Origin: a virus
Taxonomy: Duplodnaviria; Heunggongvirae; Uroviricota; Caudoviricetes
Virus record (IMG/VR): IMGVR_UViG_3300035659_001474
Location: 21,110 to 85,109 of that record
DNA: 64,000 nucleotides
Strand: one strand, 5' to 3'
Position numbers and translations under genes: made by a program. The notes beneath the pieces are model-generated. The model was not told the DNA's origin, ran no database searches, and was given only the letters and a program-made list of their open reading frames with translations. Of the stretch, positions 4,438-40,110 are shown piece after piece (within the stretch, counting starts at the first letter, position 1; each line of letters begins with the position of its first letter).

Positions 4438-4835
4438 TTATTTTCTTATGTTTTTATTGTAACTACACTATTATGAGAGTAAACCCTTCTGCTCCAGTGT
4501 TTAAATTGCCACCTCAAGTAGTACAAGGCGTAGTGTTTTCAGAAAATGTCAGAAATGAAGCTGCTATTAGAAAACAATTTATACGAAAACTGTTTCGTAA
4601 GAAAAAAGAATTTGATTATCGTCAGACCGTGAGAAAGCGAGTGCAGATAATAAATGAAGATTTAGCGAATAAAGGTATGAGGTACGAATTCGAAGTGAAA
4701 GACGATGACAATGATCTTGTAATAAATCTATTAGTGGACGGATTGACAATATATAGTAGAAGAATCGATAATGACAATTTTGGAGAGATACTTGACAAAT
4801 TATCAAACGGCTCAGGCTTTATATTTGATGATTAA
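4419..4835 (+). CDS. hypothetical protein (lone plus-strand ORF inside a minus-strand block; true start possibly the internal MRVNPS)
   Basis: 138-aa ORF that fills an otherwise non-coding gap. Confidence 0.3.
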   Translation: MRSYQTIIFLCFYCNYTIMRVNPSAPVFKLPPQVVQGVVFSENVRNEAAIRKQFIRKLFRKKKEFDYRQTVRKRVQIINEDLANKGMRYEFEVKDDDNDLVINLLVDGLTIYSRRIDNDNFGEILDKLSNGSGFIFDD

Positions 4836-5638
4836 CGCCACCAATATAAAGGGCCATGAATTAGTCTTGCGTTGTTCGCAATTAAATCTTTAATTGCTCT
4901 TGGAATTCTGCGCACTTGTTTGCGCTGCTTTGCTTCTGACAATAAATCATTAAATTTCTGTAATGCCTCTACTGCAGCTTGTTTAGTTTCAGGAACCTCA
5001 GTCATAGCAAATACAGCTGTTTTAGCTGTATGATATGCATCCATTAGATTTTGAGATGATAGTTCTTGTCGTTTTTGTTCTATAGATTCAACTACATTTT
5101 GTGGGCCGTATTTTAGATCAAGATAGTTGTAAATGTGTTCAATTTTTGGTAGTAATTGGCTTGATGATTTTTCAATCAATTCTGTCGTATTTGGTTTGAA
5201 AATACCAATATATGATCCATGTGACTTATCAGTAAGTAATGCAATATCAAATGACTGCCCATTAGTTAATGTATAGCGTGATGTTGTCCATCTCTTTTTG
5301 CCTAAACTTTGCATATCATTTGGGCCAATGATGTCTAATCGTCGGAAATGATCCATTGCAAATTGCCAGTCGCCCTTAAATGGTGCAATGCCATTACCAT
5401 ATCCCATAAAACTTGCAGAACCGGTATGCACAGTACGAGGATGCCATTGTAAATACTGTGTAAAATTATCTGGTTTCATTTGTTCAGTTATAGGTCGACG
5501 AATAACTGGTCTAGCCGTTATTCGATGTTGTGAACCAGGATGATCTCTAAGATATTGAGTTTGTTCTTCAAATGTCATATCATCCCAATCACGAGCAATT
5601 TTCAGAAATTCACACTGGATTTGCGCATTATGTTTCAT
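4832..5638 (-). CDS. MKHLA-leader family protein (variant start MKHNAQIQCEFLKIARDWDDMTFEEQTQYLRDHPGSQHRITARP)
   Basis: N-terminus matches the leader family. The C-terminal 220 aa carry no recognisable motif. Confidence 0.55.
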   Translation of the reverse strand: MKHNAQIQCEFLKIARDWDDMTFEEQTQYLRDHPGSQHRITARPVIRRPITEQMKPDNFTQYLQWHPRTVHTGSASFMGYGNGIAPFKGDWQFAMDHFRRLDIIGPNDMQSLGKKRWTTSRYTLTNGQSFDIALLTDKSHGSYIGIFKPNTTELIEKSSSQLLPKIEHIYNYLDLKYGPQNVVESIEQKRQELSSQNLMDAYHTAKTAVFAMTEVPETKQAAVEALQKFNDLLSEAKQRKQVRRIPRAIKDLIANNARLIHGPLYWWR

Positions 5639-8372: not shown

Positions 8373-9383
8373 TTATTCGTCTTCTTCACTAGCTTTCATG
8401 TTATGAATTGGTTTGATCTTATTCAGAATTTTTGCTGTAGGTTCTATAGCTTGCTCAATGAATGTTGAATCTTTGTACGCTCCTGGAGACTCATCAAGAG
8501 TAGCTTGTCCTACCGATGTAGAATAAATGCCTTCCATTTGTGATTTGAATGTCTCTACACTTAATTTTCTTTTAGCTTCTCCACGACTCAAAACTCTACC
8601 GGCTCCATGTGGCGCAGAAAAATTCCATTCTGGATTTGATTTACCTTCACAAACCAAAATACCATCTCTCATATTAAATGGAATAATCATGCGTTCACCA
8701 ATATAAGATCTAATAGCACCCTTTCGAATAATGAAGTCATGAAAATCGATAAAATTATGAACAGTGTCTATTTGATCTACGGGTGTCACTTTCAAAATGT
8801 CACATATAATAGACACTATATATTTTCGATTAACTTCAGCATAAATCTGAGAAAATATCATGTCAAACAAATACCCGGCAGCATCTTCTCCTTCTAACCA
8901 TTCACATCCCTTCATATCAATGTTAGGTTTAGCAACTGCTTTCAAAGCTTTGATCTTAGTATATAATTCTTTACCATCTTGAACAGTTTCTTTCAAGACT
9001 TTAATTTGCTCTTGAATAATAGACTGTCTGTCACATTTATGAAATTTCTCAGCTTTATTTTGCCAGTATTCACAAATACGTTTTCCAAAATTGCGACTGC
9101 CAGTATGAATCGTAATCCAATAATCTCCGTCATTACTAATGCCTGTTTCAATGAAATGGTTTCCTCCACCAATAGTGTCAATAGAATTTATTGCACGTCG
9201 AGTACTTCCACCAGTTGACTCATATTTCTCTAAAAACCAATTCATATCGTATTGAACTGGAGAAATGTCCCCAAATTTCTCTCGATATGCTAAAGCAAAT
9301 TTCTGAGCCAACACATTAGCCTGATGCCACGGAAATTCCTTTCTCCATATTGATGACAGAATTTTCATGCGTTTGCATGCCAA
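8373..9383 (-). CDS. rtcB: RtcB RNA ligase, C-terminal two thirds (in a different frame from the N-terminal part)
   Basis: RtcB motifs GGGNHFIE, HTGSRNFG and SAPHGAGR. The frame already matches RtcB at 'CKR', upstream of the annotated TTG start. Confidence 0.7.
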   Translation of the reverse strand: MACKRMKILSSIWRKEFPWHQANVLAQKFALAYREKFGDISPVQYDMNWFLEKYESTGGSTRRAINSIDTIGGGNHFIETGISNDGDYWITIHTGSRNFGKRICEYWQNKAEKFHKCDRQSIIQEQIKVLKETVQDGKELYTKIKALKAVAKPNIDMKGCEWLEGEDAAGYLFDMIFSQIYAEVNRKYIVSIICDILKVTPVDQIDTVHNFIDFHDFIIRKGAIRSYIGERMIIPFNMRDGILVCEGKSNPEWNFSAPHGAGRVLSRGEAKRKLSVETFKSQMEGIYSTSVGQATLDESPGAYKDSTFIEQAIEPTAKILNKIKPIHNMKASEEDE

Positions 9384-10785
9384 ACGGCACTCTTTGCCTA
9401 ATTCTATGATCTAACAACTCAAGAGTAATAGAAAGACTTTTTCCTATATTAAATGAAGTCATCCCGCAATTATGAACAAATACACCTGCAGCTAGTGCAA
9501 AGTTGCTATACTCTTCAATTGTCAAACAATATACATCTGTTGGTAAACAATCTATTAGTTCAATATTTTTTACAGAATGATTTTGTACCCGTTTAAAGTC
9601 TTTGAAAACTAATTTTAGATGCGCTGCATCAGTTTTTAATGCTTTTAGATGATTAAAGACACCAAAAGCGCTTTTAACTTGTGCATGACATATTGGACAT
9701 TCATATAGTCTATTACCTATTTCTGTAGACTTCTTTATTCCTTTTTCTGATTTAGAATAAGCAATCAAATATTCTCTGCCTCGTTTTCCGGCTAATTTTG
9801 CCATTTCTTTAAATTTATCTGTTTTACAAAATTCTTGAAATGTCTTAGCTGCTCTAATTTTTAGATTTTTGGCAAATTCTGGATCTTTGTGTAATGCACT
9901 CATTTTTTCTGATGACATTTTTGAAAATCTATCTCTATGCTTTTGCCACGTCCTTGTCCAACCGCCACTACCATCTTTATTTGCGATTAATGTATGACTA
10001 GCATGCAAAGTTCGATGATTAGCCCACGACATTCTGACAATATTTGTAGGATTATTATTATACTTATTAAAGTCATCGTGATGTCGAATAAATTTCGATG
10101 TTAATGCAACCATTCTATGACGAACATTGTAATCGTCCGCAAGCAAATGTATAAAATCATATAAATTTGTATATGGATTGTAAACTACAAAATACTCTTT
10201 TAACTTCCAACATTTATTAATCTTTGACAATTGTTCACGAACAACATCTTTCACTTTCACAATATATAATGGTAGTAATGACTGATTAACTGTTAATTGA
10301 TCAGCACGTGTTTCTTCATTGTTTCTCGTATAAAAAATCTGATCAATAGTAGAATAAATTGTTTCATTATTATCTAATGTAACTTTCGCAAGTCGATCGA
10401 CTGTTCTTGTTTTCTTGACAGATAATATTTTCGTAATTACAATATTGCCATGATCATCTTTAGCAAACACATAATTATCTTTATTAGCATTAAAATCATC
10501 TAATAATTCTAACATAGTTAATTCTTTATTATTTGCTAATTTAACTTTTGTATCTTGAGTAAAACATCCAATATCTACGCCCACAACATTGGGAATTGTT
10601 TTATCAGTCATTGGCATCGTAAATCCAATAACAGATCCTTTGCCTGCATGAGTATCAGGCATGATTGCAATTGGATTTGTAAATGCTGGATGATTTACAA
10701 AATTAGTAATCTGAGCAGCGCAAGACTGTTCAATTTGATCAATCATGACTTTTGCAGTTGTGTATTTGCCAGGATATTCAATCAT
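9316..10785 (-). CDS. rtcB: RtcB RNA ligase N-terminal extein, a ~366-aa intein, and a 50-aa C-extein segment
   Basis: MPDTHAGKG and VGVDIG are followed by an intein with an N-terminal Cys (CFTQDTKV...) and the C-terminal ...VFVHN|CGM junction. The C-extein reads CGMTSF..IRQRVPFG, matching RtcB DIGCGM...VPHG. Confidence 0.7.
   Translation of the reverse strand: MIEYPGKYTTAKVMIDQIEQSCAAQITNFVNHPAFTNPIAIMPDTHAGKGSVIGFTMPMTDKTIPNVVGVDIGCFTQDTKVKLANNKELTMLELLDDFNANKDNYVFAKDDHGNIVITKILSVKKTRTVDRLAKVTLDNNETIYSTIDQIFYTRNNEETRADQLTVNQSLLPLYIVKVKDVVREQLSKINKCWKLKEYFVVYNPYTNLYDFIHLLADDYNVRHRMVALTSKFIRHHDDFNKYNNNPTNIVRMSWANHRTLHASHTLIANKDGSGGWTRTWQKHRDRFSKMSSEKMSALHKDPEFAKNLKIRAAKTFQEFCKTDKFKEMAKLAGKRGREYLIAYSKSEKGIKKSTEIGNRLYECPICHAQVKSAFGVFNHLKALKTDAAHLKLVFKDFKRVQNHSVKNIELIDCLPTDVYCLTIEEYSNFALAAGVFVHNCGMTSFNIGKSLSITLELLDHRIRQRVPFGMQTHENSVINMEKGISVASG
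9469..10566 (-). mobile_element. intein inserted in the RtcB DIG|CGM motif, with an internal putative homing-endonuclease region (possibly HNH-like)
   Basis: The intein's splice-junction residues are a Cys at residue 74 and a terminal HN before the +1 Cys. The 366-aa insert contains a central basic, His/Cys-containing domain (ECPICHAQV..FNHLKA). Confidence 0.6.
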
Positions 10786-12442: not shown

Positions 12443-12474
12443 ATAGATATAATCAGTTGAAAAAGCTATGAAAA

Positions 12475-12547
12475 TGCCTCGAGCCGGATTCGAACCGACA
12501 ACACGCAGATCTAGAAGCTGCTGTTCCACCAATTGAACTATCGAGGC
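12475..12547 (-). tRNA. tRNA with anticodon CUA (amber suppressor); isotype not assignable
   Basis: Manual fold has a perfect 7-bp acceptor stem (GCCTCGA/TCGAGGC), a D arm with GG, the anticodon loop TT-CTA-GA, a 5-nt variable loop, the T loop TTCGAAT and discriminator A. CCA is not encoded. Confidence 0.8.
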
Positions 12548-12554
12548 ATTCTCT

Positions 12555-13778: not shown

Positions 13779-13783
13779 TGAAA

Positions 13784-13854
13784 GCCACTAGGAGGATGCG
13801 AGCCCCCGACCGACTGCTTACGAAGCAGTTGCTCTACCAGCTGAGCTATAGTGG
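13784..13854 (-). tRNA. tRNA-Thr (anticodon CGU)
   Basis: Manual fold has acceptor GCCACTA/TAGTGGC, a D loop with GG, the anticodon loop TT-CGT-AA and the T loop CTCGCAT. Confidence 0.8.
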
Positions 13855-13867
13855 CAATTTCAAAAAC

Positions 13868-13942
13868 TGGAGACGGCGGGGAGAATCGGACTCCCGGTAT
13901 CGGTTTTGCAGACCGAGGCTTTAACCACTTAGCTACGCCGTC
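13868..13942 (-). tRNA. tRNA-Cys (anticodon GCA), CCA encoded
   Basis: Manual fold has acceptor GACGGCG/CGCCGTC, the anticodon loop CT-GCA-AA, the T loop GTCCGATTC and a 3' TCCA. Confidence 0.85.
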
Positions 13943-14227: not shown

Positions 14228-14319
14228 TGGCGGAGAATACAGGATTCGAACCTGTGGAGGTTTTTAAAGTCCTCACTACGTTAGCACCATAGAGCCTTAA
14301 ACCACTCGGCCAATTCTCC
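14228..14319 (-). tRNA. tRNA-Ser (anticodon GCU), type II with a long variable arm, CCA encoded
   Basis: Manual fold has acceptor GGAGAAT/ATTCTCC, a 3-bp D stem, the anticodon loop GT-GCT-AA, a long variable stem (GTGAGG...CCTCCAC) and the T loop TTCGAAT. Confidence 0.85.
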
Positions 14320-14655: not shown

Positions 14656-14679
14656 TAAATCGGTTGATTAGCAAATTAA

Positions 14680-14951
14680 CTGGCGAGAAGGGACTCGAAC
14701 CCCCAACCATCTGGTTACACTTATCCACATATTTTTATGTGGCGTGGACTTTCTCTTCACCTTGTCTATTACTAGATTTAGGTGCACCGTGTAAAGTCTC
14801 TACACATAAGAGCTTTTTTTACTCTCTTGCTCGGGATTGCCATAGATAGATTCCTTAGGTTTCCCCGACTTAGCGGCGTGTTCATCTAAATATTTCTATT
14901 TAGAGCTGCGTTTACCCACAGCCAGATGCTCTGCCATTGAGCTACTCGCCA
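14680..14951 (-). tRNA. tRNA interrupted by a group I intron in the anticodon loop. Exon 1 is 14918..14951 and exon 2 is 14680..14717. The best reading is tRNA-Asn (GUU); tRNA-Thr (UGU) is the alternative.
   Basis: The 5' half reads TGGCGAG-TA-GCTCAATGGCAGAGC-A-TCTGG-CTGT. The 3' half reads TAA-CCAGA-TGGTT-GGGGGTTCGAGTCCCTT-CTCGCCA-G. The acceptor pairs perfectly (TGGCGAG/CTCGCCA) and the anticodon stem is TCTGG/CCAGA. The splice site follows a U, and the intron ends in G. Confidence 0.7.
14718..14917 (-). ncRNA. group I self-splicing intron (IC3-like, tRNA anticodon-loop type)
   Basis: The intron contains GGGGAAACCTAAGG, a GGCAATCCCGAGCAAG Q-like element, a GTGTAGAGACTTTACACGG R/P7-like element, CCTAAATCTAGTAATAGACAAGG and GAAAGTCCACG. 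All are close to the Azoarcus and Anabaena tRNA intron cores. A 6-bp P1 can form between exon GGCUGU and intron GCAGCU. Confidence 0.7.
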
Positions 14952-14974
14952 ATAATTTCAAAGAACTATCAAAG

Positions 14975-15050
14975 TGGTGGCTGCGTCCGAAGTTGAATCG
15001 GAGGCCTCTTGTGCTTCAAACAAGCGCTCTACCGACTGAGCTACACAGCC
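14975..15050 (-). tRNA. tRNA-Phe (anticodon GAA), CCA encoded
   Basis: Manual fold has acceptor GGCTGTG/CGCAGCC, D arm GCTCAGTCGGTAGAGC, the anticodon loop TT-GAA-GC and the T loop TTCAACT. Confidence 0.85.
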
Positions 15051-15274: not shown

Positions 15275-15440
15275 ATAATCAAAATTATCAAAAGATGTTC
15301 AATTATTTCTCAAAATATTAATCATATATATAGTCGTAGAAAAACCATTGCTTAATTATTGTTTGATTTCTATCACTCTAAATATGATGACAGTCATAAT
15401 CGTTGTTAAAATATAGCAACATAACTGAAAGGATGTCAAA

Positions 15441-33295: not shown

Positions 33296-34021
33296 CTACA
33301 CTGCTATTATCTTCAATTTTCTTCTTATCAATTTGACGTCCATTAATCTTCTAGTAATAGTCATTCGTTTTTGTTTTATCTTTTTTCCCTTATTTAATTT
33401 GACACGACTACTAATTAGCAGTCTTGTTTTTAAAGAATGTGTTTTACCAAAAAAATTATTATTTTCTCCTCTTCGATTTAAACTCATTTTCTTTCTAGTT
33501 TCTAAAGAATGCCTAAATCCTTTTACTGAAGCTCTAATTTTTGCTTTAGTTTCTTCAGACACTATTCTAGTCTTATTAGATTCAATAATTCGTTGTCTAT
33601 GTCGTTTAGTGAGCTTTTTACCATAAAATGGATTATTTGAACCGTTTCTTTCAACTGTCGCAAGTAAACCTTGACCTCCATCAGTTCTATTTACTAGTGG
33701 CCCTTTATTCATGTCAGCACGACCAATTTGTCTTATTAAAGAGATTTCTACTTTGCAACTTTTATTATCAGTAAGACCATGACGTAATATAGTAATAATG
33801 GGTTGTTTTCCTGATCGCAGAATTTTTTTAATTTTATTTATTTTGTGATTACGTATTGAAAAGTTTAATTGTTTTTTTGCACTTTGTAAATGACTTTTAT
33901 ATCGTTCATTAATACCTTTACCAATGTAAAATGGTTCATATAAAAAACAAATACTTCGATATGTATATTGCCCAGGTTTATTAGGATTCAAATATGCATA
34001 AACATAAAACTCTTTTTTCAT
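33296..34021 (-). CDS. GIY-YIG homing endonuclease with NUMOD repeats
   Basis: YVYAYLNP...PFYIGKG (GIY-YIG), then repeated SEETKAKIRASVKG / ETRKKMSLNRRGENN (NUMOD3-like). Confidence 0.8.
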   Translation of the reverse strand: MKKEFYVYAYLNPNKPGQYTYRSICFLYEPFYIGKGINERYKSHLQSAKKQLNFSIRNHKINKIKKILRSGKQPIITILRHGLTDNKSCKVEISLIRQIGRADMNKGPLVNRTDGGQGLLATVERNGSNNPFYGKKLTKRHRQRIIESNKTRIVSEETKAKIRASVKGFRHSLETRKKMSLNRRGENNNFFGKTHSLKTRLLISSRVKLNKGKKIKQKRMTITRRLMDVKLIRRKLKIIAV

Positions 34022-39288: not shown

Positions 39289-40110
39289 TTATAATATCAT
39301 AAACTCAAAATTGAATCCCTTTTGTAAACAAGCAGTTCTTTTAATTTCATTTCTTTCTTGATGCAGTCTATATGACCATTTACTCTTAACTTCAATTATC
39401 TTATTTTGCGATTTAATAAAAATATCTGGAAAATATCTATGAATTTTAGACCGATATGTGTATAAGATTTTCCCAATGAATTTTCCTATATCATGAACAC
39501 CAATAACTAAATCTGATTCTTCAAACGTTTGTAAAAGTTGTGCAATTGCTCTATCTTCATATCCTTGTACTTTTACAATTTTTCCCGATGGAAGACTATA
39601 ATCTCTACTTTTAGAAATAAACATTCTACTAGCATTGCTTTCATTTTTCCAAAATTTAAGTTTGTCATTAGAAAGCTTAGCTATAACAACAGGATCTTTA
39701 TATGCATCTCTTAAAGCTTTAATTCTTTTCTTTCGACTTTTTTCATTGTTCCAGACTTTTCTCATTTGATCTGAACTAACCTTACGAACTTCTTTACTTT
39801 TGTCTTTATCATTATAAAATGCTGCTAAACTCTCTTTTATTTTACGTTTAACTTCAGGTTTATTCTGAATAATTTTACAAATAGCTCTATGTTTTTCTTT
39901 TATTTCTGGCTTATTTAACGCAGCCTTAATTGCTTTACGTTGTCGTCGTTTAACACTAGGCTTATTCATTGCTAATCTAGTTGCAGCACTGCGTTCTTCA
40001 TGATATTTGTCAGTCAACATATATATTGACTTACATTGTTTAGAACAATATTTTTTTACTTTGTTTGCTGTAATAAATTCTTTATTGCAGCCTTTACAAA
40101 TTCTAATCAT
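39289..40110 (-). CDS. NUMOD-repeat DNA-binding protein, putative free-standing homing endonuclease
   Basis: An N-terminal Zn finger (CKGCNKEF..CSKQC), repeated NKPEIKEKHRAI / NKPEVKRKIKESL NUMOD-like units, and an unassigned C-terminal domain. Confidence 0.35.
   Translation of the reverse strand: MIRICKGCNKEFITANKVKKYCSKQCKSIYMLTDKYHEERSAATRLAMNKPSVKRRQRKAIKAALNKPEIKEKHRAICKIIQNKPEVKRKIKESLAAFYNDKDKSKEVRKVSSDQMRKVWNNEKSRKKRIKALRDAYKDPVVIAKLSNDKLKFWKNESNASRMFISKSRDYSLPSGKIVKVQGYEDRAIAQLLQTFEESDLVIGVHDIGKFIGKILYTYRSKIHRYFPDIFIKSQNKIIEVKSKWSYRLHQERNEIKRTACLQKGFNFEFMIL

Follow-up and report, generated by a model that had tools for sequence, protein, structure and literature searches.

A tRNA-Asn(GUU) gene of a probable large uncultivated phage appears to be split between positions 35 and 36 by an IC3-like group I intron

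Group I introns inserted between positions 35 and 36 of tRNA-Asn have been listed as type 'Asn.4Ug' by Williams 2020 (bioRxiv 10.1101/2020.01.27.920355). According to Nakagawa et al. 2026, 25 of 28 introns at this site belong to subgroup IA and 19 come from Patescibacteria, two examples from which self-splice precisely in vitro (PMC13011429). For phages, a 2014 review placed all known introns in protein-coding genes and none in a tRNA gene, though phages carry many tRNA genes (PMC3984707). Unclassified 'enigmatic' tRNA introns, of which none had been reported before, were described in the Lak megaphages by Devoto et al. (bioRxiv 10.1101/356790). A full-text literature search in an incomplete collection returned no published group I intron in a phage tRNA gene.

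Here we describe such a candidate in a 64,000-nt stretch of viral DNA, the whole of which is called the window. Positions 14951..14680 of its minus strand read as two tRNA halves flanking a 200-nt insert at 14917..14718, as follows.

14918..14951, minus strand: 5' exon of tRNA-Asn(GUU), with the acceptor 5' strand, D arm, anticodon stem 5' strand and loop C32 U33 G34 U35
14718..14917, minus strand: IC3-like group I intron, 200 nt, identified by the RF00028 match and the custom model R1
14680..14717, minus strand: 3' exon, with U36 A37 A38, anticodon stem 3' strand, variable loop, T arm, acceptor 3' strand and discriminator G73

Read from 14951 to 14680, the sequence is UGGCGAG-UA-GCUC-AAUGGCA-GAGC-A-UCUGG-CUGU / 200 nt / UAA-CCAGA-UGGUU-GGGGG-UUCGAGU-CCCUU-CUCGCCA-G, which places U1 at 14951 and the discriminator G at 14680. 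An earlier sequence-only reading had proposed this split tRNA, with the same coordinates, the stems UGGCGAG/CUCGCCA and UCUGG/CCAGA and a 200-nt insert, and both our reading of the sequence and ARAGORN bear it out. With introns allowed, ARAGORN places a tRNA at 14679-14952 with a 200-nt intron, labelled Thr(tgt) i(34,200); without that option it misses the gene. When the exons are joined in silico, they form a cloverleaf that ARAGORN calls tRNA-Asn(gtt). With a probability of roughly 0.88, we take the locus to be the tRNA-Asn(GUU) gene of a probable large uncultivated phage, split between positions 35 and 36 by a 200-nt IC3-like self-splicing group I intron. This assignment draws on the family match, the helices, the covariation, the splice register, the isotype and the intronless alleles set out below; catalysis by the intron and expression of the gene are predicted from the sequence.

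The insert matches the Rfam family RF00028 (Intron_gpI) over the full length of the model (positions 1-253) at 58.8 bits, against a gathering score of 50, with E-values in permissive scans of 1.4e-14 on the local 400 bases and 2.3e-12 on the whole window. It is also recognized, at 201 bits and as the only match in the window, by R1, a covariance model built from twelve tRNA-Asn introns and retrieving 75 introns from the fetched loci. The sequence-only reading had assigned a group I intron to the anticodon loop and suggested a covariance-model search for it; the RF00028 score above the cut-off over the insert, the R1 match and the covariation confirm that assignment, and the five core blocks that it quoted are all present in the insert. 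The default Rfam gathering scan of the 64-kb window missed the intron (14725-14929, minus strand) despite a score of 58.8 against 50, because of the speed filters. No second intron was found in the window by Rfam, model R1 or ARAGORN with introns, and no endonuclease ORF lies within the 200-nt intron. The related loci used for comparison are listed here.

L029 and L034: intron at the window site; identity to the window locus (tRNA plus intron) 87% and 81.5%, flanks ~69-80%
L033: 5' exon and intron absent; in their place a 413-aa DUF559 ORF, followed by a decayed 3' exon copy and by another, intact tRNA-Asn
L139: same tRNA, with only a 29-nt insert at 35/36
L179 and L189: more distant introns at the same site

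The hand-drawn structure of the window intron consists of the following elements, with helix positions in intron numbering 1-200.

14917..14923, minus strand: P1 5' strand, exon GGCUGU plus intron G1; the U35.G9 wobble marks the 5' splice site
14904..14910, minus strand: P1 3' strand, internal guide sequence CGCAGCU, intron 8-14; the P1 pairing follows the exon across different tRNAs
14886..14903, minus strand: P2, 7 bp with a GAAA tetraloop, intron 15-21/26-32
14874..14878, minus strand: P3 5' strand CGCCG, intron 40-44
14831..14868, minus strand: P4-P5 domain, P4 50-55/82-87 and P5 59-60/77-78
14804..14830, minus strand: P6/P6a, P6 88-94/106-114; hairpin recovered by the free-energy fold
14793..14800, minus strand: P7 5' strand G-A-GACUUU with A119 bulged, intron 118, 120-125
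14785..14789, minus strand: P3 3' strand CGGUG, intron 129-133
14760..14782, minus strand: P8, intron 136-158, GUAA loop, receptor-like internal loop CCUAAA/CAAGG
14746..14752, minus strand: P7 3' strand AAAGUCC, intron 166-172
14719..14745, minus strand: P9.0 enclosing P9; P9.0 AC/GU 173-174/198-199, P9 7 bp 176-182/187-193, loop AAAA
14718, minus strand: terminal guanosine (omega-G), intron position 200, with the P9.0 GU directly before it

All pairs of this P1-P9/P9.0 model are standard, including those of the P3/P7 pseudoknot helices. An independent minimum-energy fold recovers P1, P2, P4-P5, P6a, P8, P9 and P9.0, and the minimum energy of -61.5 kcal/mol corresponds to z = -4.18 versus 200 shuffles. 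The sequence-only reading had tied the group I assignment to P3, P4, P6 and P7; all four form, and the assignment stands. The features that it gave for the splice sites were found as well: U is the last base of the 5' exon and G that of the intron, and a 6-bp P1 joins exon GGCUGU to intron GCAGCU through G.U, G-C, C-G, U-A, G-C and U.G pairs. By analogy with G264-C311 of Tetrahymena, G120-C171 in P7 would be the guanosine-binding pair. P5 sits within a stretch that reads as the 11-nt GAAA-tetraloop receptor motif CCUAAG/UAUGG, whose role as a tetraloop receptor is well established. The L9 loop is AAAA in the window and GAAA in both L029 and L034, which may weaken a tetraloop-receptor contact and lower activity. 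We do not claim a P10 between the 3' exon and the guide region: it has at most 4 of 5 pairs, is not conserved in L029 or L034 and displays no covariation; a weak P10 could lower activity.

The helices are also supported by covariation. In the alignment of the 75 introns, which was fitted to the R1 structure and most of whose members were collected through a 19-base core word, 85.3% of cells pair; shuffling the columns lowers this to 66.7%, and sliding the partners to 42.5% or less. Changes on both sides occur at 42 of 53 pairs. P2 is 92.5% paired, with compensatory changes at all seven of its pairs (one P2 pair is A-U in the window versus G-C in L034); P3 is 98.9% paired, with an outer pair that is CG in 33, UA in 28 and GC in 7 introns; P4 (98.1%) and P5 (99.3%) use several pair types each; and the P8 base is 100% paired (CG 39, UA 17, GC 14). 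The base of P6 pairs in 100%, without compensatory changes. P7 is 99.4% paired though absent from the R1 structure; it is nearly invariant and so gives no covariation evidence. The P1 helix covaries with the differing exons, whereas P6a and P9 are length-variable and poorly aligned across the wide family, and the P9.0 columns are poorly aligned too. At closer range, the window, L029 and L034 differ by compensatory changes in P2, P3 and P9 of the intron and in the acceptor stem of the tRNA (UGGCGAG, UGGCUCG and UGGCAAG, each with its complement). Conservation of 95% or more in the other 74 introns marks 51 columns, and the window intron departs from the consensus base at none of them; 19 of the 51 belong to the 19-base search word itself.

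A U at -1 together with an intron-final G is obtained in two splice registers: 35/36, which leaves the anticodon GUU (Asn), and 33/34, which leaves UGU (Thr). Under the second, the gene would be a tRNA-Thr(UGU) with the same intron two bases upstream, between 33 and 34; this is the register behind the Thr(tgt) i(34,200) label, and the window, L029 and L034 all keep the U at -1 and the intron-end G in it. Six agreeing lines of evidence nevertheless support the 35/36 register and tRNA-Asn(GUU): the U.G wobble in P1, P9.0 beside the terminal G, the homologous introns, the U1-A72 and G73 identity elements, a syntenic intronless tRNA-Asn, and near-identical intronless alleles in metagenomes. The P1 wobble is U35.G, while U33 is paired to A in the Rfam alignment, so that a 33/34 site would have no wobble. 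P9.0 (AC/GU) directly abuts G200 and cannot form ahead of G198. At least 14 homologous introns, compared as aligned tRNA-Asn introns outside the group of the window, L029 and L034, have an intron-end G only in the 35/36 register and end in A in the other; their 3' junctions read ...AUG/UAA, ...AAG/UAA or ...GAAG/UAA in L010, L014, L016 and the aligned introns of metagenome-assembled genomes (MAGs) of Clostridia.

The tRNA body points the same way. The window tRNA combines U1-A72 with G73. Among the tRNAs of the fetched loci, G73 and U1 recur in 4 of 5 intronless Asn tRNAs, whereas the 14 Thr tRNAs all pair G1 with C72 and have U, C or A as discriminator. L033, a syntenic relative with 80-90% nucleotide identity and the same tRNA order, has an intronless tRNA-Asn(GUU) between Ser and Phe. 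The metagenome contigs L152 and L132 hold intronless alleles that read ...CUGGCCGU/UAACCAG..., or in the longer form obtained by a metagenome scan with the 3' exon ...GCAUCUGGCCGU/UAACCAGAAGG..., and L152, a 65.8-kb contig with 24 tRNA genes, has its 5' flank in common with the window. An ordinary Thr(UGU) gene is additionally present in L152, L010 and L014. When IMG/VR was searched with the spliced junction and T arm, no intronless allele was retrieved. The same two-base ambiguity has been published as a cause of Thr(UGU) calls by ARAGORN and tFind (PMC13011429; bioRxiv 10.1101/2020.01.27.920355). We consider the Thr assignment very improbable, and splicing after position 35 to give GUU rather than UGU, as the sequence-only reading had preferred, is favoured by the P1 wobble, P9.0, the homologues, the intronless alleles and the identity elements alike.

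Two side observations concern the tRNA itself. The closest intronless alleles (L152 9989-10065 and L132 101-175) have C33, giving the loop CCGUUAA, and not the near-universal U33. Whole-body similarity to the 162 tRNAs of the fetched loci was tried as a measure of isotype and set aside as non-discriminating, the best matches being Gly, Val and Met.

For the tRNA-Asn(GUU) gene split at 35/36, the anatomy of the intron and the established chemistry of group I introns suggest the following pathway. A minus-strand precursor would be transcribed within the tRNA cluster, and the intron would fold so that the last six exon bases, GGCUGU, form P1 with the internal guide sequence, U35 lying in the U.G wobble. 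Free guanosine bound in the P7 site would attack after U35, P9.0 would next set the terminal G200 into the same P7 guanosine site, and the 3'-OH of U35 would attack the 3' splice site, joining U35 to U36 and yielding the anticodon loop CU-GUU-AA. End trimming and CCA addition would finish the tRNA, the latter being needed because CCA is not encoded here; it is encoded in L029, L034 and L033. Introns at 35/36 of tRNA-Asn are known to splice precisely in vitro (PMC13011429).

An intron that no longer splices, within a decaying tRNA pseudogene carried along in the cluster, would also account for some of the features seen. The window L9 is AAAA and not GNRA, CCA is not encoded, L033 has lost the 5' exon and the intron and retains a decayed 3' exon beside a different tRNA-Asn, and L139 holds only the 29-nt insert at the same site. 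Against this, the helices are all intact and the 51 conserved core positions are all kept, the differences from L029 and L034 are compensatory in both intron and tRNA stems, and the window contains no other tRNA-Asn (ARAGORN, default and with introns), yet Asn accounts for 5.2% of the codons in its long ORFs, with AAU making up 78% of the Asn codons. On balance, decay is an improbable explanation, and we retain the interpretation of a splicing-competent intron.

The two relatives without the intron have features of their own. At 7329-8652 of L033, the 413-aa ORF with a DUF559 (Vsr-like endonuclease) domain runs into the decayed window-type 3' exon, an arrangement in which an endonuclease cassette seems to have replaced the split gene. 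The 29-nt insert of L139 (UCGGCAGUACCUAGAUGGACUGCCAAAUG; 4820-5160 of metagenome contig Ga0315274_10041924) is too short for a ribozyme; one neighbour, a tRNA-Gly, has an insert of 26 nt, and in a third tRNA-like gene (about 4930-5030) the insert seems to be ~30 nt long. These mini-inserts recall the 'enigmatic' tRNA introns of Lak phages.

The split gene lies in a tRNA cluster, in which ARAGORN located these further genes.

12474-12548, minus strand: tRNA CUA suppressor (ARAGORN 'Pyl'), intronless, ARAGORN default
13783-13855, minus strand: tRNA-Thr-CGU, ARAGORN default
13868-13942, minus strand: tRNA-Cys, ARAGORN default
14228-14319, minus strand: tRNA-Ser-GCU, ARAGORN default
14975-15050, minus strand: tRNA-Phe(GAA), 23 nt upstream of the tRNA-Asn in the same orientation, ARAGORN default and Rfam

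The suppressor tRNA that the sequence-only reading had mentioned in this cluster is therefore present, as the CUA tRNA. The tRNA-Phe and tRNA-Asn genes are probably co-transcribed; the minus strand also has a promoter-like site, matching at 11 of 12 positions, at 15439..15410. TAG ends 5 of the 47 long ORFs of the window despite the CUA tRNA in the cluster, and given these TAG-ended ORFs the standard code seems to be in use in this part of the genome.

The window, with a G+C content of ~35%, encodes DnaB, an NAD-dependent ligase, trigger factor, PolX, an FtsK-like protein and a sigma factor, together with several radical-SAM proteins, homing-endonuclease-like proteins and an intein-bearing RtcB, and several of its proteins have strong matches to PHROG families without an assigned function. 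No virion gene was recognized in the window. No close cultured phage turned up: neither blastn of the locus nor megablast of the surrounding 20 kb matched any of 50,697 phage records. An exact-protein look-up of the window DNA ligase returned no record. IMG/VR includes three relatives, viral contigs of 113, 126 and 416 kb, and these, with the gene content, suggest that the window is part of a large uncultivated phage.

The RtcB homologue, ~4 kb away in the same region, raises the question of whether the insert could be removed by proteins, that is by an endonuclease plus this ligase in archaeal-style tRNA splicing. The insert, however, has all the parts of a group I ribozyme, guide sequence and terminal G included, no splicing endonuclease was found among the scanned proteins, and phage RtcB is usually explained as a repair enzyme for cleaved tRNA (PMC7824862). 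Protein-mediated removal is thus extremely improbable, and RtcB is not needed for the group I pathway proposed above. As an aside, the RtcB gene (8373-10785, minus strand) is broken into a pair of ORFs that overlap but differ in frame (9316-10785 and 8373-9383). An intein splicing domain follows RtcB model position 61 in the first of them, a pattern that suggests an intein together with a frameshift, or else a sequencing error. Elsewhere in the window, the ORFs at 33296-34021 and 39289-40110 (both minus strand) match PHROG families of homing endonucleases or endonucleases; taken with the intein, these matches suggest that selfish elements are abundant in the genome.

The 19-base P7/P3 core, GTGTAGAGACTTTACACGG, occurs in 32 IMG/VR contigs and 38 bacterial-MAG contigs. 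ARAGORN calls intron-split tRNA genes in 13 of the 32 IMG/VR core matches, comprising Asn, Lys, Leu, CUA suppressor and a single Thr-labelled gene (L028) of uncertain isotype, where assignments outside the window rely on ARAGORN with introns and a reading of the flanks; several further matches show tRNA 3' halves. The sequence-only reading had called group I introns in phage tRNA genes rare, which is true of the literature searched; the data show otherwise, with the same core in many IMG/VR tRNA genes. At least 6 of the 32 matches sit in protein-coding genes with an HNH ORF: in L011, L012, L020, L024, L026 and L031, an ORF with an HNH-type motif (CPNCH...FDKG) lies just upstream of the ribozyme core. 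Because the 19-base core is common to both, the tRNA introns and the HNH-bearing mobile introns share one core lineage.

Amber-suppressor tRNAs (CUA, with a long variable arm) are also split by same-core introns, of ~175 nt, in L005 (7586-7779), L019 (795-985), L021 (5564-5755) and L025 (3224-3413), apparently again at 35/36 (CUCU/...G/AAA). Two matches to the intron model lie within a few kb of each other in the viral contigs L028 (1881-2125 and 4801-5035), L004 (3519-3758 and 4686-4886) and L002 (3050-3194 and 3440-3666), so that one phage region can hold more than one intron-bearing gene.

These results have practical consequences, because the standard tools missed or mislabelled the gene: it escaped both the default ARAGORN run and the Rfam gathering scan, and was labelled Thr once ARAGORN was allowed introns. 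The tRNA sets of large phages are consequently undercounted, as are the suppressor tRNAs used for inferring recoding, and the loss through speed filters in the default Rfam scan is relevant to screening pipelines. With this locus and dozens of IMG/VR relatives, the 2014 statement that phage introns lie only in protein-coding genes no longer holds. Moreover, relatives with the intron, without it, with a 29-nt remnant or with an endonuclease-like gene provide a natural series for intron gain and loss.

Whereas same-core introns do occur across viral tRNA genes, any function beyond neutral persistence is speculation. It is rather unlikely, in our estimation, that selection keeps small IC3-type introns as a recurrent feature of tRNA arrays in large uncultivated phages (Asn, Lys, Leu and amber suppressor). 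Were it so, splicing might gate the timing of phage tRNA activity, or the split anticodon loop might shield the gene or precursor from homing endonucleases or anticodon nucleases. Intron-split suppressor tRNAs, invisible to standard finders, could then also explain recoded phages that seemingly have no suppressor; recoded phages without a detectable suppressor have been reported (PMC7886860), and the split CUA tRNAs may bear on such cases.

How does the window intron compare with known systems? Its layout is minimal, with a single P2, a short P5, only 2 nt between P3' and P8, and neither P7.1/P7.2 nor P2.1/P5abc/P9.1-9.2. The established subgroup definitions distinguish IC3 by the absence of the P7.1/P7.2 elements of IA and of the P2.1, P5abc and P9.1-9.2 elements of IC1. 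Of the elements behind the peripheral tetraloop-receptor contacts of Azoarcus (L2 with P8, L9 with P5), the window intron has a GAAA L2 and CCUAAG/UAUGG in P5, but its L9 is AAAA and its P8 loop is only receptor-like. The blocks AAnUCGGnGAAACCUAAG, UAUGGCAA..CCGAG, GUGUAGAGAC and GGUGAAG..AGUCCA recur in what we take to be the Azoarcus intron sequence, and global alignment to that presumed sequence gives ~58% identity. The IC3 label of the sequence-only reading therefore agrees with the architecture and with the block similarity to Azoarcus, and we keep it as 'IC3-like', the Azoarcus comparison being a lead only. The IC3 introns of Azoarcus tRNA-Ile(CAU) and Anabaena/Nostoc tRNA-Leu(UAA) are likewise ~200-250 nt long, lie in the anticodon loop, have only P2-P9, and share with the window intron the GAAA tetraloop and 11-nt receptor; they differ in their sites (36/37 and 34/35), their tRNAs and their cellular hosts.

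Among phage-borne elements, the classical group I introns (T4 td, nrdB and nrdD; Bacillus and Staphylococcus phages) are also self-splicing, but all lie in protein-coding genes, most are IA2, and they often carry homing endonuclease genes. The Lak megaphage introns, likened here from their published description, resemble the window intron in occupying tRNA genes of very large uncultivated phages and in being conserved between genomes; one was likewise labelled Thr(TGT), with an uncertain excision point, and their authors did not classify them as group I. The nearest cellular counterparts found are the Clostridia-MAG tRNA-Asn introns (L037, L038, L046, L052, L054-L056, L063 and L068), which have the same site, P1 (GGCUGU/GCAGC), identical 19-base P7/P3 core and overall helices, and differ in an extra P1-loop hairpin, in details of P5, P8 and P9, in their exons, and in that their records are labelled bacterial MAGs. 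The published Asn.4Ug introns share the tRNA, the site, the U at -1, the intron-end G and, usually, the lack of an endonuclease gene, but are mostly IA and in Patescibacteria, whereas the window intron is small, IC3-like and in an apparent phage genome. What is new is thus the apparent phage location and the IC3-like form at 35/36; the principle was already known.
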